A stretch of 52,698 nucleotides of DNA from Rotaria sp. (lineage: Eukaryota): the NCBI GenBank assembly GCA_905250055.1, contig CAJNOF010000202.1, positions 107,666-160,363 of the forward strand. The letters are read 5' to 3'. The notes beneath the pieces are model-generated. The model was not told the DNA's origin, searched no databases, and saw only the letters and a list, made by a program, of their open reading frames with translations. Below are positions 2,401 through 52,698 of this stretch, in pieces. The translations under genes were made by a program, and so were the position numbers. How positions within the stretch are numbered: the stretch's first letter is position 1; every line of letters starts with the position of its first letter.

Positions 2401-2769
2401 ACGAGTACAGGTGTTCAGTGTAGATTCGGCAAAAGTAGAATTGCGTCCACATTGATACTCATACTCATACCCACAGCGAAATCGAAAAAGTGCTGTTTTA
2501 CCATACTGTCGATATTCATTTCAATTAAACCCCTCGTCATAATAAATGACCCCGGGTCTTCTATGATGTTCCACCAAAATTTTTGAAATTTTGGCCCATT
2601 TCTGCTGACGATAACACGAAATTACTATGGAGCGACCGCCCTGGAGAAGCGTTCTTCGAAAGTGGGCAGGTCTTCTTATATGGAATGGTCTTCTATTATA
2701 TCAGCGAGTTTGTAACAAATTAGCTCTAATGCATCGCATTCGATCCAAGCTGGATGATCTCCAAAACAG

Positions 2770-2945
2770 GATGTCGGTGTGGGTGTGGATGTGGGTGTGG
2801 TGTGGTCTAAGAGAATATATACACCCACACCCATACTCCACATACCCACCCGCACTCACATCCATGCCGCACATCCGCACCCACCCACACGTACATACTC
2901 AGACCCACACCCAGCCGCCCACACCCACCCACACCCACACCCCGC
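2770..2945. repeat. Head-to-head telomere-repeat palindrome: G-strand arm 2770-2808, ~12-bp spacer, C-strand arm 2821-2945
   Basis: tgtcggtgtgggtgtggatgtgggtgtggtgtggtc, then taagagaatatat, then acacccacacccatactccacatacccacccgcactcacatcc...cccacacccacaccccgcacc. Confidence 0.85.
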
Positions 2946-3478
2946 ACCTTCTTCTCTGTGTTTTGTTTTAACTAACGTTGCAGTGATAACTAATAGTGAA
3001 ATATTATTCTTCTCTGTTATGAGATTATATGCAATTCTGTTACAACATCTTACTGGCTGTCGTGCCGCCGCTCTGCTGGAATGGTGACCGAAACGTGTCC
3101 AAAGGTGACTAGGGGAGTAAGCTTGGAAAGTGACGTCACCTCAGACACTCTAAACTTTCGGCTTCGGCGAAAATTTGGGTTACCTTTTCGATAAAATGTT
3201 CGGAAACTACCCACACTCCTCTTTGGGTGGGTTTGAAAATTGTCTCAATTTACTTTGTTTTAAATATTCGCCGGCAAGTTTTTTGTGATCAGGTGACGTC
3301 ACGTTTATGAAGTGGGATGAGGTCAGCGGAGAAAATGACCAAAGAGCAAGCTGGATTGGGGGCGGGGAGGAGGAGAAGGGTTTAGGAAAGGTAACATCAT
3401 TAATGCACAGCCCCTTACGTCATCTTGAAAATTCCCAACATGCCTTGCGTATATATGACCGCACATTCTATAGTGTGT

Positions 3479-5835: not shown

Positions 5836-8195
5836 TCAATGAAATTCAATAGTGACTCCAACATGTTTAGGTATAAGAGTTAGTTTCTGAATAAATCCAC
5901 CTGCATTTACTTCAGGACCACCATCACCAATTGTCATTTGTTGTAACATACGAGCTAGAATTACTTTTAGTTCGAATAGAGCTAAATCTTGTCCAAGACA
6001 TTGACGATGACCACCTCCAAACGCTAGAAATGCATATGGATGATGATTTTTATCTTCATCAAGAAATCTTTCTGGATAGAATAATTCAGGATCGATTTTC
6101 CAATGACGCCTATCTCGAGCGAGAGAGGATGTTGGAATCAGTACTTGGTCACCTTTGTAAAGTCGAGTACCACTTTTAGGGAGACAGTCGTCGACAGTGA
6201 CTGAACGACATGTTGAGTCAATCGTTGGAGAATAACGAAGTACTTCATTGATAAAACAATCCAAATAAATAAGTGAATCAAGATAATCTAATGATAAATG
6301 TTGACCACCATTATTCTCCATTAGTTCTGCCTTGATTTTTTGCTGAACTCTTTGCTGTTTACTTAGATGATAAATAGACCAAGCAAGAGCAGTAGATGTC
6401 GTTTCATAACCAGCAATCAAAAACATGAGTACCTCATCAAAAACTTCCTTTCGTGAAAGACCTATCAATAAAAGAATAGTAGATATAAAACCGCATGACT
6501 TCAATATGCAGTAAAGGTAGAGATCACTGCAAAATAGGCAAATCTAACAAAATTTACATTATATATATAGACAAGGACAATATATATCTCGATATTATTA
6601 GGAAGAATTCAAGTTCATTCATGGAAAATAATGCAATCGTTTCATACTATCATTGAAAAGCCTTCATAGATGAAATCTAGAGAAAATGTACTAGATTATT
6701 CGATGAATAATAGTTTTGACTTTTGCTCTGTTCGATTTCAGCAACTAAAGGATAAAAAACGTTTATCCGTTTTTGGATGTGCAGTTGTGTACAGTCGAAC
6801 AAGATCCAATCATATACAAATAGAAACAAGAACGACCAAGGGTGTGGATGTGGGTGTGAGAGTAGTAAGTTCCATAGTCCACTTCTACACGTCATACCGA
6901 CACTCACATCCACACCGTATTCCGAAGATCTCAGCTCTAGTAACAATTAGACAGAAAAATTCATGTCTTCGTCATGCTATAGATAACATGCTAGTGTAGC
7001 AAAGGCATAGAATGCCGTGAGAAACATGTGTATGAGCATTCGTTCTGTGGAATTTTTAGTAAAAAACAACTTTGCTCATAGCAAAAACTCAATAGATCTT
7101 GAAATTTTCGATTCATAAATCAGTCGATGGTATTTAGAAGACACGAAAAATGTAGCTGCATCATATAAGTTGTATGATCTTTCCAAAAAGAAAATTCAGC
7201 GTGTAAATATACGACAAATTATTAGAAACGATGAATCAAACCAAGGGTTTAACGAATCGATTTTACCTCTTTTATCTTCCTCCTTTTTTCTTGCTTCGAC
7301 TTTTTCATCGGCTTGTAATGAATTCACAAGTGATGCGATTAATGAAGTTTTCTTTCGTTGTGCTCTCGACTCTGGACTTTCAGCCAATTCTTGTTCGATC
7401 ATTTTATGAAAATGTCGTTCGACTGTTGCTCTTGCTCGTTGAAATCGAGTATTCAACTTCATATAGATAATTGATACAAAACTAGGCGCATATATAGCCA
7501 TTTTAAATGTACTCATGATATCGAGCAGGGCTTCGGTCAGTTCATTATTATTGCTGGAATATTTATTATCAAGTGTTTCCAAATTATAATCAAAAGCAAT
7601 TAATCCAAATATTTCAAGAAGAAGATTTTGACACTGTTCAACAACATCTGTATGCACCTGATTATGTGGTCTAGCACGCCATCTGTCTAATAGTTTGTCA
7701 GTACTATCAACAATTGTGTTAATATTTGAAATAATTTTGCTACGACGAAATAACGGCATAGTAAGAGTACCATGCCGTTTGAATTTGAAACCTAGTAACC
7801 AAAATGAATAAATACTTGTTATTACTAGACCAATAAGCGATACCTATGTTACAAATGATACTCTCAGGAACCAAAAGGCTAAATTTTTCTAAAAATACTT
7901 GCCCTTGATCGTAAACATTTCGATGCGTAAGAACGTACTGAACATCGTCAATATCATGCACAACAATGAAACGCATAAAACCAAGCCAATATTGATAAAT
8001 ATCACCGAACCGTTTCTTGAACGATATATAGACATCAGATGCTGATCTTTTTCCTAATAGTAAACCCGATTGAAGAAGATTTCCAAAAAAGATATGTGGA
8101 GACAAGCCAGGTATTGGACCACGAAGTGTAAAATATTTCAATTTAATATAGACCATCAATACAATGATGAAAAAAAGCAACAGAAGAGTCACCAT
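5836..8195 (-). CDS. Cytochrome P450 monooxygenase (CYP3-clan-like), apparently intact, 3 exons, ~500 aa
   Basis: Minus-strand join 8195..7844, 7791..7267, 6461..5836, with phases consistent (352+525+626 nt). N-terminal membrane anchor and proline hinge RGPIPGLSP, I-helix AGYETTS, PERF (FYPERF), heme-binding FGGGHRQCLGQDLA. ATG at 8195-8193, TGA stop at 5838-5836. Intron 1 is 52 nt; intron 2 is ~800 nt and contains a telomere-repeat palindrome. Confidence 0.85.
6840..6920. repeat. Head-to-head telomere-repeat palindrome located inside intron 2 of the intact P450 gene
   Basis: ggtgtggatgtgggtgtgagag ... spacer ... cgacactcacatccacaccg. Confidence 0.75.
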
Positions 8196-14442: not shown

Positions 14443-15156
14443 CTAAGGAAATTTAATATTCAAATTGCGTAATTTTAGTAAACGATTATTGCCGAGTAAT
14501 TCCACCAACAATACGCACGAACATTGATCAATCAAAAGTGTATGTAGATACCAATGAGTATTGATACGAGAAGATATATCCTTAAGATCATTCATATAGC
14601 TCTTGTCATACTGCGGTGAAATTCGTAGGTAGAATGAACACAATTGTGGGAGAGAATTGAGTATTGGTATAATAAAATCCATGTCGGTCCATGTATCGTA
14701 ATTCCGATAGTGATACAGATCACTATTCAAATCGATCGAAAGTGATTTGAGAGTAAGTGATTGTAGAAAGTTGCCTATCAATGAATTATAGATACGCACA
14801 GGCACATCTCTGATAGTTATTGCTTTCAAATTTGACAAGACGAATTTTTGATCATATAGTTCGAAAAGAAACGAGTCAACTGCATGAGGAGCACGGTGTT
14901 CGGACAAATGAAGATAGACAATTTGTGATGAATATTGATGTAGAACATATGCCATGTAATAACCATCGTAGACATCTATACTCATGCGTCGATTATTGGG
15001 CAACGAAAAAGGGTGTTGCATGATGATGGATGAAAATCGACTGTTAAGTTCTTCAAATGCATTGAGTAGATCGAGTGGAGTAAGATATTCGAAAATTAAA
15101 AGAATGAGTTCAACGGACAAATGTTCGAACAGTGTAGGTGAACATAGATTACTCAT
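14443..15156 (-). CDS. F-box domain protein, 5-prime exon (237 codons of open frame from ATG 15156-15154)
   Basis: N-terminal F-box consensus LFEHLSVELILLIFEYLTPLDLLNAFEELNSRF, followed by Leu-rich repeats LKAITIRDVP...LTLKSLSIDLNSDL. Real ATG at 15156-15154. A GTAAGT sits right after the frame-ending TAG at 14445-14443, so the exact 3-prime boundary is unclear. Confidence 0.55.
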   Translation of the reverse strand: MSNLCSPTLFEHLSVELILLIFEYLTPLDLLNAFEELNSRFSSIIMQHPFSLPNNRRMSIDVYDGYYMAYVLHQYSSQIVYLHLSEHRAPHAVDSFLFELYDQKFVLSNLKAITIRDVPVRIYNSLIGNFLQSLTLKSLSIDLNSDLYHYRNYDTWTDMDFIIPILNSLPQLCSFYLRISPQYDKSYMNDLKDISSRINTHWYLHTLLIDQCSCVLLVELLGNNRLLKLRNLNIKFP

Positions 15157-16886: not shown

Positions 16887-19001
16887 TCAGATTTTCTCAA
16901 TATATATCTGTGTTTGTTCACCACAATCAATAATTGAATAAGTTTTTAGCAAGTGAATAAGAACTAATTTCATTTCCATCAATGCAAAGCGCATGCCAAC
17001 ACAATTTCGTGGTCCGATACCAAATGGAATTCATGCGAGTGGATGTCTTTTTGTAGCAAATCGTTCTGAATAAAATACATTCGGATCAACTGGACCCTAT
17101 AGATCAGGATCAAAATGTACACTATAAATATCAACAGTGACAATTGTTCCAGCAGGAATCGTACGGACATTACGAATATGAAAATCTTCTGTACTTTGTC
17201 GATTGATGACAACTGGTACAATTGGATACATATGAAGACCTTCTCGAATGAACATATCTAAATATTCCATTTTCAAAATTGCTTCATAAGTGGGTATATC
17301 ATTGTCTGTATTCGGATGGAAATGAGAATCGATATGTTCTTGTAATTTGAGTTGTTCATTTGGATGAGTTGCAAGAACATAAGAAACATAAGCTAGTGCA
17401 GTACTTGTTGTTTCATAGCCGACAGCCACTAGATAGAAATAAATATGTTGATAATAAAAAGTTATCTAGACGAATAGAAATTACTTACTAAAGAAGTGAT
17501 GAACGATCCTACAATAGTGAATAATAGAACAATCTGATACAATCAGATTCACTAATATTTGAGTGCAACTCATTTCAGAAACGATTGTTTTACGTTATAT
17601 AAATAACAGAAACGGTAGACAATCAATAGCTAGTCTTTACAATACAAAGCAAAACGTATTGGATATGAGCGACGAGACAGCGTATTAATATTAAAAAAAT
17701 AAGTTTTATCATGTTTCATATGAAAGTAAATTCAGTTTCATGACCGAAAAATAATCTTTAGCTGTCAACACTTTTTCCTATCGTTGAAACTTGTAAAACT
17801 AAATCTTCGAAATCTAATCTGACCAAAATTGCATTAGATTAGAAGTAGTTCTCACTCTGCTCATTTGTTAGCATGCAATAAAGCTCATCGACTCCAGTAT
17901 GAAAGTATTTGAAAAAGTTGTTTACAGAAGATAGCCTTTTCAAAACTCTAAACAGAAACTCGGCCTGAATAATAATTGAGAAATATATGAACATTAAAAT
18001 GAGCAATCTGACACTTTTTTCCTTTGAGGAAAATCCTGCTCTGTCATCATCGAAAACCGGATGGTTCTAGGTTACTCTCGTAATAGAACTTCTTACTTGT
18101 CTGAATCTATGCGGGAATGCTTGACATACTTCAAGCATAGAATCAAAGGAGCAAAATATCATACTTGAATGACTTCTTCATCCGATGCTGATTCAAGCAT
18201 CAACTGTAATAGATCCATTCGGCTTGTATAACCCAAATTAACTCTTTTCTTGATCAATTCTTGAGTCTGTTTCTTTATCCATATAACTGGATCATCAGTG
18301 ATCTGCTTCCGTGCTAGAGGTACATTATATCGAAGCCATCTTCGCACAATATTATCAATCGTGTGTAACATATTTCAAAACCATTTGAATTCAGGCATAA
18401 ATACATACGAAAGCATAATCTTACTTAAGCAATATTCTGGGCTGAATACACGTTGTGATTGAATAAGATATGGATCATTCGGATTATTTTGCATGTCTGT
18501 ATCAAGACCAAATCCACATGACCATATAGTATCCATAGTAAAACGTTTCAAAAATGTATAAATATCAAAGGGTTCGCCAAGTTGATATTGCTCGGTTAAT
18601 TTTGTCATTAATGCCTCAATACTATGATTAATTAGTGGAGACATTTTTTTGAGTTTGGTCGATGAAAATGTTGGATTAATAACAAATCGTTGCCGTTTCC
18701 AACGAAGATCTTGTGCAGTAAATAGATGACCTTCTTTCACATGTGGTTCGTCAAATGCAACTTCACGACGTGAATGAAAGTTTGAAAATATTTTAAAAAT
18801 ATATCTTGTAAAATATTCGGATCGGAGACGACAAGAATTGGTATATGGCCTTCAAAATAGCCAAATATTCGACCATATTTTTTCGTTCATTCTTTTATAC
18901 ATAATGACATATCGAATAAAAAAACTGTAAGTTCGATGCATATGCCATAAATACACAACAACTAATGCGATAAATACAGCAATGAGAATACTTGTTAGCA
19001 T
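16887..19001 (-). pseudogene. Cytochrome P450 (CYP3-like) paralog with three in-frame stop codons and N-terminal frameshifts; probable pseudogene
   Basis: Minus-strand exons ~19001-18755, ~18740-18150 and ~17467-16887 encode [74 protein letters not shown]. In-frame TGA at 18377-18375 (..EFKWF*NMLHTID..), TAG at 17099-17097 (HFDPDL*GPVDPNVFYSERF, aligned to Trp in the intact paralog) and TGA at 17033-17031 ([14 protein letters not shown]). A 1-bp frame break lies in a T-run between KYFQTF and NFHSRR, and the N-terminal exon lacks the PGP hinge in one frame. Confidence 0.6.
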
Positions 19002-23205: not shown

Positions 23206-26200
23206 ATGAAACAAACGACTATATCTACTCCATCTCTGTCACCATTTAATGGTAAATCAATTGTCCTCGAAATTGGTCATGAAATAGGTTTCAAAGCTAA
23301 ACAAGAACTGATCAACTATTTACGAGAACAGAAAGCACATATTTCATATATTCTTACAGCTAGTGTACGTTCTACTTCTATTTTACAAGTATGCTGTTGA
23401 AGTTGACTGCTGTTTTTTTTTGTAGACTGACTATGTTTTGGTTACGAATAATGTAGACAGCTACAAAACACGTCGTGCCAAACAGCTCGGTTTGCCACTG
23501 GTCAATGTAGAATATGTGTACGAGTGTCGCCGTTTGCCACTTGGTCAAACATCGATCGATATTAACAAATTTATCATAAAATCGGTTGAAGATCAGGACA
23601 TTTTTACAAAGACTGGTACTATTTCCGTCACAGGTATTAGAAGATTTCTTTTTTTTATTTGAAAAAACATATTAGACGTACCTATTTGTTAGCATCCAGA
23701 GTAAATACGACCAAAATTAATAAAGTCGATTTAGCTAAAATCAAGATATGGAATTCAGACGATGTTGATTTGCCTCGTTTCGATGAGTTAACACATTGTG
23801 AAATTGGCAAATGGGCAATTTTTAAAGTACAGTTTTATTCATATACTATAACCATGCTCTATTTTATAACTCCACTGTTTGTAACAGGAAACTAATGATA
23901 ATTCAGATGTATTTTTTGTTCTTGAACTCCAAGTTATTCCTGAAACATACTACGATCAAACAACAAGCGATTATCGACTAAGATTTCGATACGAAAAACA
24001 GAGTATTGTTAGCGAAAGTCAAACACAACATAAAAAGGTCTTGATACAATATGCGTTTGGCAATGATCCAAACGAACAGCTACAACTATTTGCATCATAC
24101 TACTATCGTGTAGCTACAATGCCACGTGTAACACGAATTCGTGAGATGCTACCGGATAAAGTAGGATCTAAACTATTATTACGTGTAAGTCAATAATACT
24201 AAAGAAAAGAAAATATCTTCCAAAAAACGAAGATGCATTTGTAGGCTTTATTTACTCATCGTATCGATACACAAATACTCAATGAGAATGTATGTCAATT
24301 GATCGAGTCGATTTGGCTAGAATCAATAGGTGATCTAAGTAAAATTTTGAGCGTACAACCTGAATCAATCAATCTTAAAACGGTATACATATTCATTTTG
24401 ATACATTACAATTATAGATATTGTTTCATATTATTAAATAGATCATCGAAGCTGAAGCTGCCTTATTCGAAATTAAATTGACCAATGATCCGGCTGCAGC
24501 ACTTCGTTTCTATTCACTTATTCCTCATCGACCAGAGTATAATGTTGATCTCATAAAGAATCGTCGAACATTGACCGAAAAAATAGATTTATGCCAAGTA
24601 TGTCTATTTCATTCGAATATTTCATTTAATCTTCTTTATCATTCAGATGCTTCGAGATATGCTAACAGTCAACGAACTAACTAATTGGAATGTTAAAGCA
24701 CCGATCGAAGCTAAATATCGAGCGTTAAAATGTCATATTGAAACAGTAGATAATTCAACACCTGAATTTAAGAATGTTGCTGATCTCATTCAATCGTCAA
24801 CGGACGAGTGAGAAAAATTGAAGTTCGATTTCATAATGATAATTTCCTTTTTACTTATTAGTAATGAAAAAATTCTTATACACCACGTCTTCAGTGTAGC
24901 CAAACAAACAGATGCACTCAATTATTGTACATCACTATCTCATCAACGGCAACTATTTCATGGATCGAAATATGCCAATTTTCTTGGAATTCTGTCACGG
25001 TAATTTTTTTTTCATTATCTAGACAGCATTTATAGTACGACCATATATCTTCAGTGGTTTGACCATGCCAAAAATGGTCGTTGAAGAATTAGGTGTCGTA
25101 CGTACTGATATTGGCTGTCTCGGCTATGGGATTTATTTTTCTGATTCTGCTTCTACATCTCTGAAATATACAACAGCAAGTACAACACGACCAGGACGAA
25201 GATTATTGTGCATCTGTCAAGTAGCACTAGGCGAATCAGCTAACTATTATTCATTTTCGCCGACTCTTACTAAACCTCCCGATGGTTTTCATAGTACACA
25301 TGGAGTTAAACGAACGGAAGAAAATCATTCAATGTTTACTGTAAGTAGTTTGTGTTCTATCAACCGGATCACAACTAGATCGCTGAGTAATAGAAAAATA
25401 TACGGCAACAACAAAGGACACTGTGCATAATAGTGTTCGGCTCGGATGGGATCAAGAAGAAAACATTTGGATCTTGAAGTAAATCTGCATTCTAGACATT
25501 TTGCAGATACAAAAGACAGTCTGAATGTTTTGTCCGTTTCGAAGTTCTATCAGATAAAGTGGAGAAGCTTAATCAAACAAAAATTTATATATGGTTCGAT
25601 TTTTTCCTTCCCTTTCACAGAATTTTCGCTATCGAAATCAAACAAACAAAAATAAAACTATCATCTAATTGTTTCGTGCCAATAACAAAATATTGATGAA
25701 GCATTAAAAACGAATAGAAATTAGGGGCATATTCTTTGTTTTTAATCATAAAATGAACGAAAGAAAAAAAGGAATTGAGAAATTGCTTTTCTCGAGGGAA
25801 GGAAACAAAGTAATGCTATTTATTTTGTAAAATTTTTGTGTTGAATAGAAAAAAAAAGATCATTGTATTCTCTATCTCTGTTACACGATGATAGCAAATT
25901 CTAAAGTATTTATCAAGTGTTTTGTAGTGTTCAAGGTAGCTAAACCAGCTGTGAAGAAAATAGTTATTGTTTCAACTCTACCAAATTACCTTCATGTCGT
26001 AATCTTTTACTAGAGTTTGCATAGCATCCTTCGCATATTTGACATTTTCTTGACGTAGTTAATGTGGAAGTACACTTAATCAAACAAACGACAACATGAT
26101 AGCGGTGACTATCGCTGGTCGTATCGAAAAAATATTTTTCTCCGAGATAAAACAGAAAACTCTAAGTTTTCTAATATATGTAACACGTCATTCTAGGAAA

Positions 26201-29200
26201 CAAGAATTTCAACTGTTTTCTTGTATTTGAGAAAATAAAAGTGGTCAAAGCACCCTGTTCAAGTCAGGAATAGAACCAAAGCTGAGCAATGTATCTTCAT
26301 GTAAAAAAAAAGTGCAGTTCTTTCTCAAGTCACAAACATTAAGTTGAAGAAAAAAAATCCGAAATTATCAGACTTATACATAATGTGAGACCGAGAATCT
26401 TCGATTATGTGTCTCAATTAGGTCTCTTTCAGTTTTCTTTCATGACTATTACGAATTTGAAACTCTAATTGAAACCTATTACAGACCAAATTAAGACTTA
26501 ACATTGAGAACAACACTACTTCGCAGCATCTTTAATCATGCAACGCAAAAAATTAATCTTTATCGAAATAGGATAACGAATATGCGATCTATCAACTCGA
26601 TCAACAACGTCTACTTTACATTGTGGAAGTTTCATGGGTACCAAATGATGCTCTCAATATTGAATTAGAACGATTACCGATTGTTCATACTCAACAACAT
26701 ACGTTAAAATTGAGTGAACATGGTAATGATTATTTTTACTTTTATTTTTTGTTAGAATAAAAAATTCGGCCAATTTATTTGTTACGTTCTAGTCGAAGTG
26801 CCGTTGGCAATCGACGATGAAGTTATTGAAGTAGCTGAACAAGACTATGGTTTAATATGTCCATCGTCAGGAAAACTCGTACCACTTAAATCATTTCATA
26901 TTCGTGCTCAAATTGTTGATACTACAGTTGAAGTAATTATACTTATTTTTCTGTTGATATAATACTACGTAGTTTATTCTATTGTCTTTTCAACGAAAAG
27001 GTTGTTCTTTATCAAGTCTATCATAATACAAGTTCGATACCGATCGAAGCCAAATATGTATTTCCTCTCGATGATAATTCTGCTGTATGCGGTTTTGAAG
27101 CACATATTAACAATAAAGTTATAAAGGGCGTCGTCAAAGAGAAAGAACAAGCTAAACAAGAATATCGAGAAGCAATTGAAAAGGGTCACGGTGCTTATTT
27201 AATGCATCAAGAACAAGCACAAGTATTCAGTGTAGCTGTTGGCAACTTACCAGCGAACAATGAAGTGATTATCAAGATAACTTATGTTGCTGAATTAGAA
27301 ATCGAAAATGGTGATATCATTTTTCGTCTTCCAGCCAAAATGGCTTCATGGCAATCAAAACAAGCGATTGAAAGGAAAGATCAATCTATTGTACGAACCA
27401 TCGATATTGTCGATGAAAAAGTCGAATTTAGTTTCAAAGCATCGATTCGAATGCCCTATGAAATAACTAAATTATTCTCGCCAACACATCGTCTTCGTCG
27501 AAAATTGACCGACTGTATAGCCGTGATCGAACTTGTTGATAACGTTTTAATTGATCGAGATTTCGTTCTTTCAATAACACTCAAAAGTGCTAATTTACCC
27601 CGAATATTAAACGAAACATTGTCATTGGATGATGACAATGGAACAACAACGACAACATCGAACAATGTTGATTCTGAAGCATGTATGCTGACATTTTATC
27701 CACGATTTGAAAAATTGACAAATTCGTACGAACAAATTGAAATTATATTCATTGTCGATGTGTCGAATTCAATGGACGGTACACATGTACAACAAGCTAA
27801 ACAGTTAGCACATTTGTTTCTTATGAATTTAAAAGTAGGCGACATAAATACATATTTTAATGTAGTTACTTTTGGATCAGGTAATTAGATGATCATCTGC
27901 AGTACCATTTTATTGTTCACATTTGAACTATTTAGATAATGATGAATGTTTTCCTATTTCAACATCAACTACAAAAGAAAATCTTGATAAAGCTAAACAC
28001 TTTGTTTTGGTTGGTTGTTTATTTTAAATACAATTTTGTCTTTTGAAAATTTATGTGTTTACATATTGTAGCATTCACTTGTTCATCGTGGTAACACGAA
28101 TCTATTTGCTGTTCTTCACCGTTATTCATTGTTACCATCATCAAACTTTGGTCGACAATTTATTATTCTCTCTGATGGACATATTCATGATCTTCAATCG
28201 ATTCTTGTTTTACTTGAACATCAATCAACTATGCGTCGAGATCGTATATTTGCATGTTCAATTGGTAATGTTGCTAACAAACACAGTTTGAAACAATTAG
28301 CGAATGGAGCAAGTGGAGGTGGTCTAACAACCGTATTCGATTCGAACTATCGATCGAAATGGAAAACAAAAGTATTAAATATTCTCGAACAAGTTCGACA
28401 ACCATGTGTTACAAGTATATCAATTGATTGGCATGGTCGTTTAGATGAACAACAAAAATTTAATATGCAAGCACCAAAAATAATTCGATCATTGTTTAAT
28501 GGAATGCGACTTAGTGTCTATCGATTTATACAAAATTGTCATAAGGCCACATTAACAGCTACTATCGATGGACAAGAATATGTTACAACTGTATTTAGTA
28601 GTACAACGACAACGACCAAAGGGCGTATCCTACACTGTTTAACCGCTCGAGCGATTATCGATGATTATGACAATGGATTATTGCATGTAGACGAGAGCAA
28701 AAACGAACTGATGAAAGTTCAATATAAACAAGATCTCATTGATCTAAGCATCAAATATTCAGTCGTTAGTGCATACACTAGTTTCGTTGCTATCGAAGAA
28801 CGTGATACTAAAACAGATGCAAAAACTCTTCAGCCAGGTTAGTAGAAAGTTAAATAGAATGTAATTAATTGCTATCGATCAGCAGTGTCACATATCCAAG
28901 ATTTTGGAGATGCCACCACATCTCCTGCGGGAGATGCCGCATCTCGCTCGAGAAATGCGAGTGTGGGTGTGGGGGATGCGTCTCTCTAAAGGAGATCTTA
29001 CATCTCCAGTGGTGAATGACCTCATCTCCCGAGTGTGGGTGCCGCGTCTCCCGCTGGAGATGCGGCATCTCCTGTGGGAGATGCGGTGGCATCTCCTGTG
29101 GGAGATGCGGTGGCATCTCCTGTGGGAGATGCGGTGGCATCTCCAAAATCTTGGATATGTGACACTACTCCTATCGATAATCATAAGCATTATTGTTTTA

Positions 29201-45330: not shown

Positions 45331-47877
45331 ATGGAATTTCCAGTTACGTTGCGGCTGTACATATTGTTGATTGTGATCGTGATATGTAACGGACTGTCGA
45401 GTCCTCTTCGACCTTTTACGACCTACAAACATTCGGTAGAACTTCAGGAAAAAACGGCTTACCTATGGTGGACAGTGAATGATGTCGAACAAGAGATTAC
45501 ATTTGAATTGCATATGAAGACTGTCGGATGGATTGCTTTGGGGATTAGTCCAGGTAGGAAATTCTACAGTTGACTGTTTCTCTGATTTTGATGTTTGTAA
45601 TTGACATTTAGCTGGAGGCATGAAAGGTGCTGATATCGCAGTCGGATGGGTTGACTCTTCTGGTAAAGTTCATATTCAAGTATGACAGATATTTTTTCTG
45701 ATTTCTAACGTATAAAAACATTCATCGATCGAGTCTTTTATCAGGATCGATTTGCATTCGACAAAACAAAACCAATCATAGACAACACAACTCAAGATTG
45801 GTTTGTTCTTCAAGGACAAGAACAAAATGGATGGACAGCCATTCAATTCAAACGTTACTTTGATTCTTGTGACCCGATGGATGTTCCTATTAAAGTATGA
45901 CTGTTGATTCTGCTGTTAAACTAATGGACATATTATACTTTGTCACAACTAGTCTGGCACGAATATTCTAATATTTGCCTATGGTCTTGTCGATCTTGAT
46001 TTGTGTCAATCAAACGTTGATATCACGTATCATAATGATCGGAGAGGTACACGTATGTTACCACTTCGATCGTATTCTGAATCACCAGCGGATGATATGT
46101 TTTCTGGACGAGATTTCTTCGATTTCCGTTTCGACAATGTGCTTGACTATATAATAGTATCTTTTTTTTCTTATTCTTCATCTCTTTCTTTAGCATTTGG
46201 TACCATCAGCTGATACAACGTACTATTGCAAAGTATTCATGAGCCCAAATAGATTTTCTACGAAAAGACACGCGATAGCCGTACATTCTATTTATTTCAT
46301 GATTATTTTACACTTATTTTGGTATTTTCTCATTCTTGACAGCATAAAGTATTAATTGATCCGAGAAATGTGAATCTTGTGCATCATCTAGACCTATTCG
46401 AATGTACTTCGAAGGATGTACTCAATGATGACCATCTACCCGATGGCATATGTGATGATATTCTCACTGAAACGAGAATCTGTTCGTCACGTTTAGCTAC
46501 TGCTTGGTCAATCGGTGCTGATGTGGTAAGTGGAAAACGACAATCAAAAAATTACTAATAGAATGGCTTGAAATTCAAATAGACTACAGTATATCCGGAA
46601 GAAGCTGGTTATCCTATCACTACTAGTGTCGGCACTAAGTATTTTATGATTAAAATGCACTATGACAATCCACGACAAACTTCAAGTAGGATAAATGAGC
46701 GTTTGTGTTGCACAGTTTGGAGTAAGATTGATTCTTTTATTGTTCTCTAGATCTTCGAGACAGTTCAGGGATTCGATTTTATCTTGGTGATGAACTTCGA
46801 CAATATGATCTTGGTTACGTCTTATTTGGAACCCTGTCTAGTCCAGCAGCTCTTGCTATTCCACCGAAAACGGAACAGTTCATTGTCGACTCTTATTGCC
46901 CTCCTGAAGCCACTCGCGTAAGCACATTGTTTCATTCATATAAGACTTGAGATTATATTCGTATTCTTCTTTGTGAAATAGAATTTTCCTGTTTCTGGTA
47001 TCAACATCGTGTCCGCCTTGCCACATACTCACTTACAAGGTACATGACTTGTAAGATAATGAAAAGACTAAAAATTCATGGGTTTCTATATAGGTTCCAG
47101 CGTATGGACCAAATTGATTCGTAACAACACAGCTGTTCAATATCTATTCAATGCAGAAGCATTCGATTTCAATTATCAATTCGCAAATCGGCTACCAAAG
47201 CCAATCAAAATCTATCCAGTAAGAAATCAGGCAGCTGACATGTGTAAAATTTGATTAAAATTTAGGGAGACGCATTTGTGACTCGTTGTATATATAGTAC
47301 AAAGAACAAGAATGTGATCACATTGGTAGAATGATAAAATAAAATTGTGCAGATTTATAATTTATATTTTGTCCATATATAGGGTGGAAAGCGAACAACG
47401 GACGAAATGTGTTCTCACACATTCTCTTATTACCCACTCGTTGATAGTCTATCCGCATGCATGTCAGCCATTGACGAGACAGCATGGCAAACTATCATGA
47501 ATACATCCACGTCAGTTTTTCTTTATAAACTTTCGAATTCTAGTTCTTTTTCTCATTTGAATAGACCAATAGGCAACATCAAACTGCAGGAATGGCTTCT
47601 TAATCTTGTATGGACACCTCAAGCAGTTACTCAATGGCAAGAGTTCTACAATAAAGCTCAACGTTTTATTCTTTATGATCGAGAAGGCCAATTCACAAAT
47701 AAAGTTTTACTCACCATCCCGAAATATAAAGATCTTACAGCTGAGCCATGCAATAAAAAAGAGGTTCAACATAGTACGGATCAATCATGTGAGATATTCA
47801 ATGATTCAATAGCTTGTCAACATACATTGTATCTCTTTACTTTAATTTTCTTTGTTTTGAAAAATATAATTCCTTAA
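45331..47877 (+). CDS. Dopamine/tyramine beta-hydroxylase-like copper type II ascorbate-dependent monooxygenase (DBH/MOXD1 family) with N-terminal signal peptide and DOMON domain; 11 exons, ~614 aa
   Basis: Join 45331-45553, 45612-45679, 45745-45894, 45953-46138, 46194-46280, 46343-46525, 46583-46685, 46751-46917, 46982-47039, 47094-47218, 47383-47877, with all phases consistent. Signal peptide MEFPVTLRLYILLIVIVICNG. DOMON: WTVNDVEQEITFELHMKTVGWIALGISPAGGMKGADIAVGWVDSSGKVHIQDRFAF. DTTYYC. CuA signature HHLDLFEC (H-H-[LM]-x2-F-x-C). HYDNP. CuB signature HTHLQG (H-T-H-x2-G). DEMCSHTFSYYP. TAA stop at 47875-47877. Confidence 0.85.
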
Positions 47878-48339
47878 TTGAAAAGCTTCATTGATTTTGT
47901 ATATTAACATTTCATAGCAAGCACTTTTTATGGATAACAGGCTGATTTTTTACTCGTATCAGTTTAAAACTAGGTAAAATCCTTTTAGTGACATCATCAA
48001 TGCGCCAACATTCATAGCGGCTATTGAAGTCCAAGTTTTTGAAATGGTCAAAAAATCACTCAACCACTTAGAATAGCCAAAATTAGTGTCTCCTGTCTTA
48101 TGTTTCTTCATGGAAAGCTTAATTATGTCTCTGTTACAACTTTTTTCATCATGAAACAAAGATGGGTGATTCAAGCCTTGTTTCGAGTCAGAGTTTTTTG
48201 GGTTATTGTTCGTATCTGTTTATTTTTACTGGGAAGATCCACAACAATTTTTTTTCATTATATCCCGTTCCAATTTCTTCGGAACAAAAACCGAAATAAG
48301 AAAAGTCACATACAAAATGAAAACATAAAACTATAGATA

Positions 48340-49378: not shown

Positions 49379-51838
49379 AACTTTATCTTTTGGCTTTTTG
49401 CTGTAATCAGGTGCTGGCTTGGTTTATTACTGATTTATTCTCGAATTGATATTATGCAGTTGAAGTTTCTGTTATATTCGAAGTCGAATCAGGAAACTCA
49501 TGGAAAAAAATACGAAATTGTGGTTGGACGACGTAGCAGTCGTTCATATCTTCTTAATTTTACGTAGACAAGAAATGTTTATTTGAAAATACAAATTAGA
49601 CAATTTTGTACAGTGAACAATTTTCCATCGCTTGAGCTTAGATGAGAGACTTTTCATGTATTGCTGTTCTTCAAAAAAGTTACTGTACAATATATAAAGA
49701 AACAATAACACTCTCTATTCCCTACAATAGTATGTTACATTTATTAAATAAACATTTAAACTAGTTCCATTTAAAACTGCCAACAAAACCCGAAGGATGT
49801 TAAAACAATATCTCACTATGTATACATAAATGCATGTATATATGCATCCCCAAAATCATAATAAAAATTGCATCTTCTGTACTGATACGATCTCTAAGAG
49901 ATGTACAGAACATCATTAAACTAAAACAGAATAACGTATACTAATGTGTAGACTATTGTATTATAAAAACCCCAATTTTTTCATAATGTTTAAGTAAAAA
50001 TAACTTATTCTGTTACTTTTTTGAATTCGCCTTCTAAGCTTTTGTCTGTTGAAGAAAGTCTATTGCACTTTCTTGAATGCATCTTCCAGCGCTACATTTA
50101 GAAACAAAACTTCACTGTACTTTTGCTGATAGACCCAAGAAAAATTTACCAATTATTAATGAAAGGCTAGCGAATGAGACTGATTGAGCTGATCTAACAC
50201 AATTAGAAATTATTTATTGAATTTCAATACTTTCTGACAGTCATAATAAAGTATAAAAAAAGAAAGCATCTTACAGTTTGGAATCTTATTAGATTGAACA
50301 TATTTTCTCTTAGTATTTCGCCATATCCGACAATCGGACAGTAATCATGACTATTTCTCAGTAGATAAAAGCAAGAAAGCATTTTCTTGGAATGATTTTT
50401 TTCTGATTTATCAAATATTTTTAAATGAAAATGAAGAAGAAAAAAGAATTTCCTCTGAAATTGCAAAGAAATTAATCGTTATTTCTTCTTCTTTTTAGCA
50501 AAAAACACCGTGATTTGACTTGTCCCAAGGTGAGGAAATCACATTTGTCCAAATAATAGTATTTTCAATATGTCAGCAAAATAAAGCTAGGTAGACTTCA
50601 GTTGAATTGCAGTACACATTCTAAAAGGTTCATTACACTAAAACCTTTCTTTCCATTTTTGTATGTGAATTTCGGATGTATAGAAATACTTAAATATCCA
50701 ACTTAGCTAGTTCCACGTCATACTAACAGTCTTTCGATTGTTTGTGTCTTCCTCCAACTATAGGCAATATCAAAAGTCATCAATCTGGGAATAGACTCTG
50801 CGCTTATTTTATTCAGAGATGAGTTCAAACGAGAGTCGTATCATGGATTCAGAATAATTCTTTCATGTCAAGACTAACGTGAAAGTCATAATATTTTCAC
50901 TTGACGTCCTCAATCAAGTATAGATGTGGATATTCTCTTTCCTACCAACCACATCCTTCGTTTGGATGGTAATTAATGTGAACGCTTCTCTTTACTCGCG
51001 ATGACGCCAGAAAAAAGAAATGTAAACAAAATTTTGTTTGCCTGCTCCCGACAAAAAAGGAGAAAGAAATGATCACAATGATTCACGTATTCAAAGGTGC
51101 GGAGAACTTTCTCAATCACCATGTTTCATTATTAGTTGAAAATATTATGCGTTTCGAATAACAAAATCCAAAAGTTGTTTTCACGATGTTGAAAAAGATT
51201 GATTCATTGTGTCTTCAAACAACAACAACAAATATATGAAATTCGTTTTTACGGACAACAATTTCTAATGCAAGAGTGAAATCATTGCTATTGATCGTAT
51301 TTGAAAAACGTTCGAAATGGATCAACGATCATCTTTTTCTAGTTCTTGATGAAACTATCATTGATGATCGAGGGTTCAGTTGATTTTCACTCAAAATATG
51401 TATACTTTCGAGTCTGAATAGATAAGTGCCGATGTTAACATACCCAAGCACAGTGTTTCAGCTATAGTTCAAGTTTGCATTGATTATTTTTTCAGAATAG
51501 CCAATGAATAACTGAAATCATGATCCTTCTCTGAGTTTCGTAAATAGAGTGTCAGATACTGATGAAAAAATAGACAGTTTCAAGTCTAGATATGTCAGAG
51601 CTGGATCCATGAAAATGTAGACTCACAGCTTCCTAACTATATACGATTGATACTACTGCGCAATTGTGATAATTAAGAACACTATGATGACTCAACGTAC
51701 GGTCATCTTATGACATCATTGAAACCTACTTCAAAATATGAGTATAATCATGAATATTGATTCGTTTTTCTTTCCGCATGACGTCAATACAGAGAGAAAA
51801 TTACAAAGTCAGACGTAGTTCGACGGTAATCATTCACG

Positions 51839-51846
51839 TATATAAG
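51839..51846 (+). promoter_or_regulatory. TATA box (TATATAAG) ~50 bp upstream of the ATG of the peptide-precursor gene
   Basis: cgTATATAAGccatgcgttcttcatttc... then ATG at 51895. The spacing is typical for a core promoter; no other support. Confidence 0.35.
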
Positions 51847-51894
51847 CCATGCGTTCTTCATTTCTTTTCACTATCACATCATAATTAAAGTATC

Positions 51895-52221
51895 ATGGCT
51901 TGTTATTATACAATTTTCTTTACTATTGGAATAATTTGTTTGCTAATTTGTGCAACAAATGCTGCTGATGAGAACATCGAAAATCTTGACCTTTCATTAC
52001 TTCGAAAGTTACTTGAAAAGCGTATGCCTTGTGAAATACGAGATCCAATCACTTATGAATGTAAAACACGGGGACCACGAAGTTCATTTAAACGCCATTT
52101 GAACAACGAAGTGCATGATATAGACAGTGTTCGACGACGAAAAAAACGTCTTCCATGTGAAGTACGAGATCCATGGACAGGTGAATGTCGTGTACCTGGT
52201 CCACGGAGTCCATTCAAATGA
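51895..52221 (+). CDS. Secreted prohormone-like precursor (108 aa): signal peptide, then two related Cys-loop peptides flanked by mono- and multibasic processing sites
   Basis: MACYYTIFFTIGIICLLICATNA | ADENIENLDLSLLRKLLEKR | MPCEIRDPITYECKTRGPRSSFKR | HLNNEVHDIDSVRRRKKR | LPCEVRDPWTGECRVPGPRSPFK*. Repeat unit PCE[IV]RDPxTxEC[KR]x[RP]GPRSxFK with a C-x8-C spacing. Single exon, stop at 52219-52221. Confidence 0.6.
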   Translation: MACYYTIFFTIGIICLLICATNAADENIENLDLSLLRKLLEKRMPCEIRDPITYECKTRGPRSSFKRHLNNEVHDIDSVRRRKKRLPCEVRDPWTGECRVPGPRSPFK

Positions 52222-52698
52222 AACGTCTACATTGACTTTCGTTAGAAAAAAACTTTTAATACAATACTTTTTAACTATGAAGAGCTATTTAAAAAAGTAT
52301 GAATTACTTATTACTTAATAACGTTATTAACTTCTAACTAATCTTGTACTTGATACATATCATATAGTGATTTTTTCTACTGTGTTCTTTTCTTCACTTT
52401 TCATTTGTATTTTCTTTCAACTCTCTTTTATAATAATAGAACAAGAATATCGATCTAACCGTGAACTAATGAAAACTACTGTTTTCAGTTCCTGTGTCTA
52501 TAATGTCAGAAGAAGCATTTATGTCGATTCCACAATCTACAATCTTTTTTGAAAAACTCACATTGTCTTGTTACAAAGTCTTTAGTTTCTTTGAACAGAG
52601 CATGTATCAATTACATCGTTTTTACTAAGAGGTAAATGATCGACTCTGATCGAACACATGTTGCGATGACGAAAGTAAGCAGGTTAGTGTCAACAAAA

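Follow-up and report, generated by a model that had tools for sequence, protein, structure and literature searches.

A small two-unit peptide precursor gene in a bdelloid rotifer, probably encoding a lineage-specific hormone or neuropeptide

Rotifers are among the animals least explored for peptide signalling. A homology screen of rotifers in 2024 recovered only about 20 families, all of them arthropod-defined (10.1101/2024.07.20.604414), and very few precursors had come to light in an earlier Rotaria survey. Peptides that are specific to a lineage escape homology screens. The locus studied here lies close to the end of a 52,698-nt stretch of DNA (the window, by which we mean the whole stretch that was analysed), and it raises the question of whether a short open reading frame (ORF) encodes a peptide precursor and, if it does, to which class of secreted peptides the products belong.

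The coding sequence runs from 51895 to 52221 on the forward strand as one uninterrupted exon, stop codon included, and encodes a precursor of 108 aa (MACYYTIFFTIGIICLLICATNAADENIENLDLSLLRKLLEKRMPCEIRDPITYECKTRGPRSSFKRHLNNEVHDIDSVRRRKKRLPCEVRDPWTGECRVPGPRSPFK). On its 5' side the frame is closed by an in-frame TAA (51886-51888) 9 nt before the ATG, whose Kozak-like context has A at -3 and G at +4. The layout of the precursor is as follows, with L007 denoting the locus of a two-copy homologue, P0004, that is described further below.

51895-51963, plus strand: predicted signal peptide (aa 1-23), from hydropathy and the -3/-1 rule; a feature common to all homologues
51964-52017, plus strand: pro-region (aa 24-41), poorly conserved (18% aa identity to L007) and carrying allelic substitutions
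52018-52023, plus strand: KR cleavage site (aa 42-43), present in every family member
52024-52089, plus strand: peptide 1, MPCEIRDPITYECKTRGPRSSF (aa 44-65), with a Cys46-Cys56 loop; the more derived copy
52090-52095, plus strand: KR cleavage site (aa 66-67), kept in the two-copy homologue P0004
52096-52131, plus strand: spacer HLNNEVHDIDSV (aa 68-79), of low conservation except for an xLNxE motif
52132-52149, plus strand: multibasic RRRKKR (aa 80-85) with a furin-type R-K-K-R inside it; the homologue has ERGKR at the equivalent position
52150-52215, plus strand: peptide 2, LPCEVRDPWTGECRVPGPRSPF (aa 86-107), with a Cys88-Cys98 loop; near the family consensus and 82% identical to unit 2 of L007
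52216-52221, plus strand: Lys108 at the C-terminus, presumably removed by a carboxypeptidase, followed by the TGA stop

The only hydrophobic segment of the protein is at its N-terminus, where mean Kyte-Doolittle hydropathy reaches 2.7 over a 15-residue window, and the (-3,-1) site has TNA before and AD after the predicted cut. The two units can be aligned without gaps over 24 residues with 16 identities, whereas none of 3000 shuffled versions of the protein gave more than 9. A preliminary description of this DNA had proposed a prohormone-like gene with two Cys-loop units, and the ORF, the sites KR, KR and RRRKKR, and the units at aa 44-65 and 86-107 bear this out. Its count of the loop as C-x8-C has to be corrected, as the loops read C-EIRDPITYE-C and C-EVRDPWTGE-C and are C-x9-C in both units. 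The core that it gave, PCE(I/V)RDP.T.EC..GPRS.FK, is present as a motif except for the two-residue gap between EC and GPRS, which is in fact three residues long (KTR in unit 1, RVP in unit 2). The peptides are rich in Pro and Gly, with a net charge at pH 7 of -0.3 to +0.8. AlphaFold2 predicted no globular fold for the precursor (mean pLDDT 61.5, pTM 0.23) and placed, at low confidence, a beta-hairpin across each Cys pair.

Short ORFs are numerous in this window, which is AT-rich eukaryotic DNA (~33% GC) that also carries P450, PARP/VIT/VWA and dopamine beta-hydroxylase (DBH)-like genes, and a frame of 108 codons might accordingly be no independent gene, being either a chance ORF or an exon of a larger, unrelated gene. 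We regard this as effectively refuted. The internal repeat is far beyond chance; an in-frame stop immediately precedes a conserved start context; the TATA box upstream is conserved; and the homologues show frame-specific conservation together with synonymous divergence, the one-copy relatives being complete 66-aa ORFs in themselves. The NCBI gene models, too, are stand-alone. The single exon with an upstream TATA box that had been noted at the outset thus holds, with TATATAA 56 nt before the ATG and a 108-aa product annotated on its own, and the upstream stop together with these annotations argues that the frame is not part of a larger multi-exon gene.

The 108-aa protein is identical to four NCBI accessions, including CAF1139146.1, an 'unnamed protein product' of the bdelloid rotifer Rotaria sp. 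Silwood1, and two more variants from Rotaria sp. Silwood1 are 95-97% identical to the protein of the window. Seven contigs of Rotaria sp. Silwood1 carry the exact protein as an annotated stand-alone product. Between two haplotypes of one assembly there are 7 nt differences in the coding sequence. Six of them are non-synonymous, are spread over 5 codons and lie without exception in the signal, pro or spacer regions; the remaining one is synonymous and falls in the codons of KR66-67, and the stretches encoding the two mature peptides contain none.

A first word-indexed search with the single protein returned this allelic cluster only. The preliminary description had suggested an HMM search and a look for relatives with differing copy number, and both were productive: an exhaustive phmmer (HMMER) search over 1.84 billion representative proteins gave only four sequences at E<=1e-3, a profile search added two further sequences, and the result is a small new family in which one-unit precursors are found beside two-unit ones. 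Five distant relatives (P0004 to P0008) lie beyond the Rotaria cluster, and the contigs on which family members lie are genomic throughout. P0004 (L007, 2229-2555) is a collinear two-copy precursor, also of 108 aa, with units A[RP]CEIRDPFTGGCAVPGPRSPF. The best named matches of the gene adjoining it are in Rotaria and Adineta, at 55-59% identity, and L007 is therefore attributed to another bdelloid. P0006, P0007 and P0008 (loci L010, L011 and L012) are one-copy precursors of 65-66 aa, complete from start to stop, and consist of signal, pro-region, RxKR and peptide, with the stop codon directly after the Phe of ...GPRSPF. Their contigs are AT-rich and metagenomic, and their N-termini (MAYYH...) resemble the MACYY/MARYY of Rotaria. 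One-copy and two-copy genes are possibly ohnologues of the bdelloid genome duplication. In P0005 (L009, 2219-2500, from JGI metagenome 3300061194) the KR, most of the peptide and the upstream blocks are kept, Tyr replaces the second Cys, and a further Tyr replaces the stop after Phe, so that the ORF is 26 codons longer. P0005 is probably a decaying paralogue, or else a linearised variant.

The consensus of the family peptide is [AL]PCEIR[DN]PFTGGC[AS][IV]PGPRSPF. The KR, both Cys, E, R, P, T, GPRS and F are invariant (P0005, with Tyr for the second Cys, being the decayed copy), and the spacing between the cysteines is nine residues in all seven intact units. KR precedes every unit, KR or RxKR separates units, and after the last unit comes either K and a stop or the stop alone. 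A signal-like N-terminus is present in all six sequences, with mean hydropathy of 2.4-3.2 over 15 residues and small -3/-1 residues near positions 23-25. An X-Pro N-terminus is found in six of the seven intact units; combined with a penultimate Pro at the C-terminus, it makes the protease-resistant ends that are typical of bioactive peptides.

The annotated proteomes of monogononts and of other bdelloids (Adineta, other Rotaria, Didymodactylos) yielded no homologue, but small genes may have been missed there. Back-translated patterns, scanned against metagenome, prokaryotic-genome and viral contigs, gave no confirmed match, the metagenome result being a weak negative because the pattern KR[AML][PR]CEIR[DN] missed L009 and L012, which both encode KRLPCEIRD. 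We also considered the horizontal transfer of a fungal, Kex2-processed repeat peptide, and rejected it as no search produced a fungal or prokaryotic relative.

Several other genes were seen around these loci. A gene with DOMON and Cu2-monooxygenase domains, similar to dopamine/tyramine beta-hydroxylases, lies at about 45500-47900 (plus strand) of the window, 4-6 kb upstream of the peptide gene, and is upstream in every Rotaria assembly in which the flank is present. It was not found in the 2.2 kb of L007 upstream of the homologue, and given that the adjacency is absent there we claim no functional link. Elsewhere in the window, at least two cytochrome P450 genes are represented by ORFs of exon size at 5836-8195 and 17097-18740 on the minus strand (Pfam p450 E 5e-50 for 5836-6504), and PARP catalytic, VIT and VWA domains at 25059-28842 (plus strand) form a combination resembling a vault-PARP (PARP4)-like gene. 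An ORF of 237 aa at 14443-15156 (minus strand) has an F-box-like N-terminus (LSVELILLIFEYLTPLDLL) and no Pfam match; ORFs of this kind typically belong to a gene family that is large in bdelloid genomes. Within L007, an ANF_receptor-type ligand-binding domain (Pfam PF01094, E 2e-12), of the domain family found in natriuretic-peptide receptors, iGluRs and class C GPCRs, is encoded at 3-710 on the minus strand, head-to-head with the P0004 gene, which is probably a coincidence. At 2997-3725 of L007, again on the minus strand, there is a DUF1295/steroid-5-alpha-reductase-like gene with dozens of bdelloid copies at 55-60% identity, whose next named relative is in the fungus Lineolata rhizophorae (39%). 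These DUF1295 genes look like an expanded family, possibly acquired by horizontal transfer.

What the products do may be approached through the selection acting on them. The gene of the window and that of L007 align without gaps and were compared region by region. Signal, pro-region and spacer together share 26% aa identity, with dN 0.60 and dS 0.56. For both peptide units the corresponding values are 70%, 0.23 and 1.30 (dN/dS ~0.18), and for unit 2 alone 82%, 0.13 and 1.31 (dN/dS ~0.10). Judged from this alignment, the non-peptide regions are effectively unconstrained, dN being about equal to dS, with the basic sites holding their positions; selective constraint lies on the peptide and on its cleavage sites. 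Within L007, four synonymous changes and a single non-synonymous one distinguish the two units, so that their identity is upheld by selection and does not reflect a recent duplication, and comparison of the L007 units with those of L010 and L012 gives dN/dS of 0.07-0.10. Of all the units, peptide 1 of the window gene is the most derived, its dN/dS in comparisons with the others being 0.3-0.7. In precursors of signalling peptides the peptide is more conserved than the spacers, and in toxin precursors the reverse holds (10.1101/2022.08.05.502922). By this comparison of sequences, the pattern between the window and L007 is typical of signalling-peptide precursors.

A processed cyclic peptide need not be a signal. 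It could serve in host defence as an antimicrobial, act as a protease-inhibitor loop, or be a secretion of gland, mastax or cuticle, and furin-type RxKR/RKKR sites, lack of amidation and a single disulfide loop are all established features of defence peptides as well. The Arg inside the loop could in principle act as a P1 residue. However, the canonical inhibitor loop is C-T-K/R-S-I-P-P, which C-E-I-R-D-P does not resemble, and peptides with a charge of about zero that are neither cationic nor amphipathic fit poorly with an antimicrobial role. Moreover, conservation in the precursor is highest in the mature region, the part in which toxins and defence peptides usually diversify (10.1101/2022.08.05.502922). 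The family therefore differs from cationic host-defence peptides both in charge and in the absence of diversification in the mature region, and we consider a non-signalling role unlikely. In our reading this bdelloid gene codes for a small secreted pre-pro-peptide whose products are most likely extracellular signals, that is, a neuropeptide or peptide hormone. The preliminary description had read the gene in the same way, as a precursor of a neuropeptide or other secreted signalling peptide, and the signal-like N-termini, the conserved basic sites and the far higher conservation of peptides than of spacers support such an interpretation.

The upstream region may bear on how the gene is controlled. 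Four elements were distinguished there.

51711-51718, plus strand: octamer TGACATCA, similar to a cAMP-response element (CRE), 184 nt before the ATG; L007 carries the same octamer at -118
51779-51786, palindromic: perfect CRE consensus TGACGTCA, 116 nt before the ATG; one of three copies in the 52.7-kb window
51839-51845, plus strand: TATA box TATATAA, 56 nt before the ATG
51854-51894, plus strand: conserved 5' leader with the in-frame stop and the start context, 35 of 41 nt identical to L007

The leader is thus 85% identical to that of L007, whereas the adjacent coding pro-region is less conserved (18% at the aa level). A TATA-like element occurs 35-56 nt before the ATG in the window and in L007, L010, L011 and L012, L009 having no score for it. 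Elements of the CRE type recur in the family (TGACGTCA at -73 in L012, G(A/G)TGACG in L009 to L012), and the four loci of the one-copy type have upstream sequence blocks in common. Over six upstream regions of 200 bp we counted 14 TGACG/CGTCA half-sites against an expectation of 1.6 derived from the remainder of the loci (Poisson P ~1.5e-9), counts that are not fully independent, L010 and L011 being closely related. Regulated neuropeptide promoters often contain CREs, which also occur outside neuropeptide genes. These elements suggest that transcription of the peptide gene may be regulated through CREs. The other two perfect TGACGTCA palindromes of the window are at 3131 and 3294, just past a low-complexity stretch (2627-2971, plus strand) with THTHTQ/PHP repeats in one frame. 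A possible shared element 3' of the gene (window ~52355-52425) was clear between L009 and L010, but in the window it is T-rich and ambiguous, and it was dropped.

How would the precursor be processed? From the anatomy and its conservation we infer the following scheme of processing, disulfide formation, secretion and receptor-mediated signalling. The signal peptide would be removed after about residue 23, and subtilisin-like proprotein convertases would then cut at KR42-43, KR66-67 and RRRKKR80-85. Most of the sites have Arg at P4 or P6, so that they could be cut by furin-type as well as by PC1/3- or PC2-type enzymes. A carboxypeptidase would trim the basic residues, including the terminal Lys108, and the Cys pair of each unit would close an 11-membered Cys-to-Cys loop (C-x9-C). 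As no Gly precedes the basic residues, the peptides are expected not to be amidated, and as the one-copy homologues stop directly after Phe, the mature C-terminus is taken to be this Phe. The predicted products are two cyclic, non-amidated peptides of 22 residues ending in ...GPRS(S/P)F-COOH, with oxidised masses of about 2585 and 2497 Da, which may act on a receptor, probably a GPCR. Lack of amidation together with sites that are mostly of the furin type R-x-K-R means that processing is also possible in non-neuronal cells that secrete constitutively. The name neuropeptide, as against another kind of secreted signalling peptide, is putative.

One may go further and speculate that bdelloids evolved a signalling system whose ligand is the family peptide, a cyclic hormone or neuropeptide without amidation that has no counterpart elsewhere in animals and would act on a receptor. 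We hold this more specific model to be possible, although the odds are against it. Such a peptide system could be tied to physiology specific to bdelloids. In any case the gene is a concrete candidate, with predicted products of 22 aa, one disulfide and a free Phe at the C-terminus, and with one-copy and two-copy variants that can be used for comparison. It could mark bdelloid peptidergic cells and help to deorphanise a receptor. It is an incremental addition to neuropeptide diversity and brings no new principle.

Comparison with described peptides places the family on its own. A Pfam scan of the precursor gave no family at E<=10, hormone and neurophysin families included, and the best hit of a profile search of the PDB was a beta-agarase at E 1.4, a chance match. 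Full-text searches of the literature for the motifs GPRSPF, RDPFTG, CEIRDP and PGPRSP returned unrelated papers only, and no peptide of this type is described in the rotifer neuropeptide literature. The 'Triangle DREP' peptides of rotifers, with 59-65 aa and a long loop, were examined and are unrelated. The absence of obvious likeness to vasopressin/oxytocin, CCAP or insulin-like peptides, remarked on in the preliminary description, extends in the Pfam, PDB, literature and protein searches to known families generally, in agreement with its suggestion of a lineage-specific peptide.

Known Cys-loop peptides differ in format as well. CCAP has a loop of 5 residues and CCHamide one of 6, as against nine here. 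The loops of vasopressin/oxytocin and AstC/somatostatin are likewise shorter, with 4 and 6 residues (sizes for AstC and vasotocin from PMC10175484). The amidating Gly followed by basic residues, or the neurophysin domain, of these four groups is absent from the present precursor.

Closer in format are the ENF/growth-blocking-peptide cytokines of insects, which have about 23-25 aa, a single disulfide loop and a free C-terminus, and lie at the extreme C-terminal end of their precursor. Release from the C-terminal end is also expected for the one-copy 66-aa relatives. ENF peptides are nevertheless confined to insects and share no sequence similarity with the family, in which their N-terminal motif and longer loop are absent. 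A conserved free C-terminus of the form ...(S/H/M)-P-F is known from angiotensin II, apelin and des-Arg9-bradykinin, and the removal of the final basic residue of bradykinin (...SPFR) by carboxypeptidase resembles the ...SPF(K/R) ending here. These -Pro-Phe-COOH peptides are linear or come from unrelated precursors and show no evidence of homology to ours, and we treat the likeness as a lead only; to our knowledge, no receptor link has been found for these vasoactive peptides in protostomes.

Among protostome Cys-loop peptides, elevenin is nearest in format, and the signalling peptide might in principle be a strongly diverged orthologue of it or of another such peptide. Like the present products, elevenins are short (19-27 aa) and non-amidated, with a free C-terminus, one essential disulfide loop of similar size and a short tail, and they are cut from a small precursor that carries both a signal peptide and basic sites (PMC10175484). 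Elevenin is not among the families reported for rotifers (10.1101/2024.07.20.604414), and short peptides often diverge beyond what sequence comparison can detect. However, all elevenins have exactly 8 residues between the cysteines, and conserve an Asp ahead of Cys1, a Phe and a Pro inside the loop and Arg-Gly following Cys2 (PMC10175484). In the seven intact units of our family the loop has nine, and D5, F11, P13, R16 and G17 (Aplysia numbering) are all absent; the family instead has Pro before Cys1, Gly-Gly before Cys2 and Ala/Ser followed by Ile/Val after Cys2. The precursors also differ, since elevenin occurs once and follows the signal peptide without a gap (PMC10175484), whereas here a pro-region of ~18 residues and KR come before the first of one or two units, two in the case of the window gene. 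No sequence similarity between elevenin and the window peptide is detectable, and protein searches gave no match to any annotated neuropeptide. Orthology to elevenin or another known Cys-loop peptide is accordingly quite improbable in our estimate.

The preferred reading, that of a signalling-peptide precursor, finds a close parallel in convertase-processed multi-copy neuropeptide precursors in general, such as those of the FMRFamide-, FCAP- and orcokinin-type known from rotifers, which have the same layout of signal, acidic or unconserved spacers and repeats bracketed by KR or RxKR, with conserved peptides between variable spacers and a copy number that varies. The present precursors differ from these in having only one or two copies, in that their peptides would be cyclic and not amidated, and in a sequence without counterpart in Pfam, the PDB or the literature searched. 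On these comparisons the gene, real but of an ordinary kind, is filed as a new peptide family, apparently confined to bdelloids, inside the known class of convertase-processed signalling-peptide precursors, and its peptide is probably a lineage-specific hormone or neuropeptide that had not been described before.
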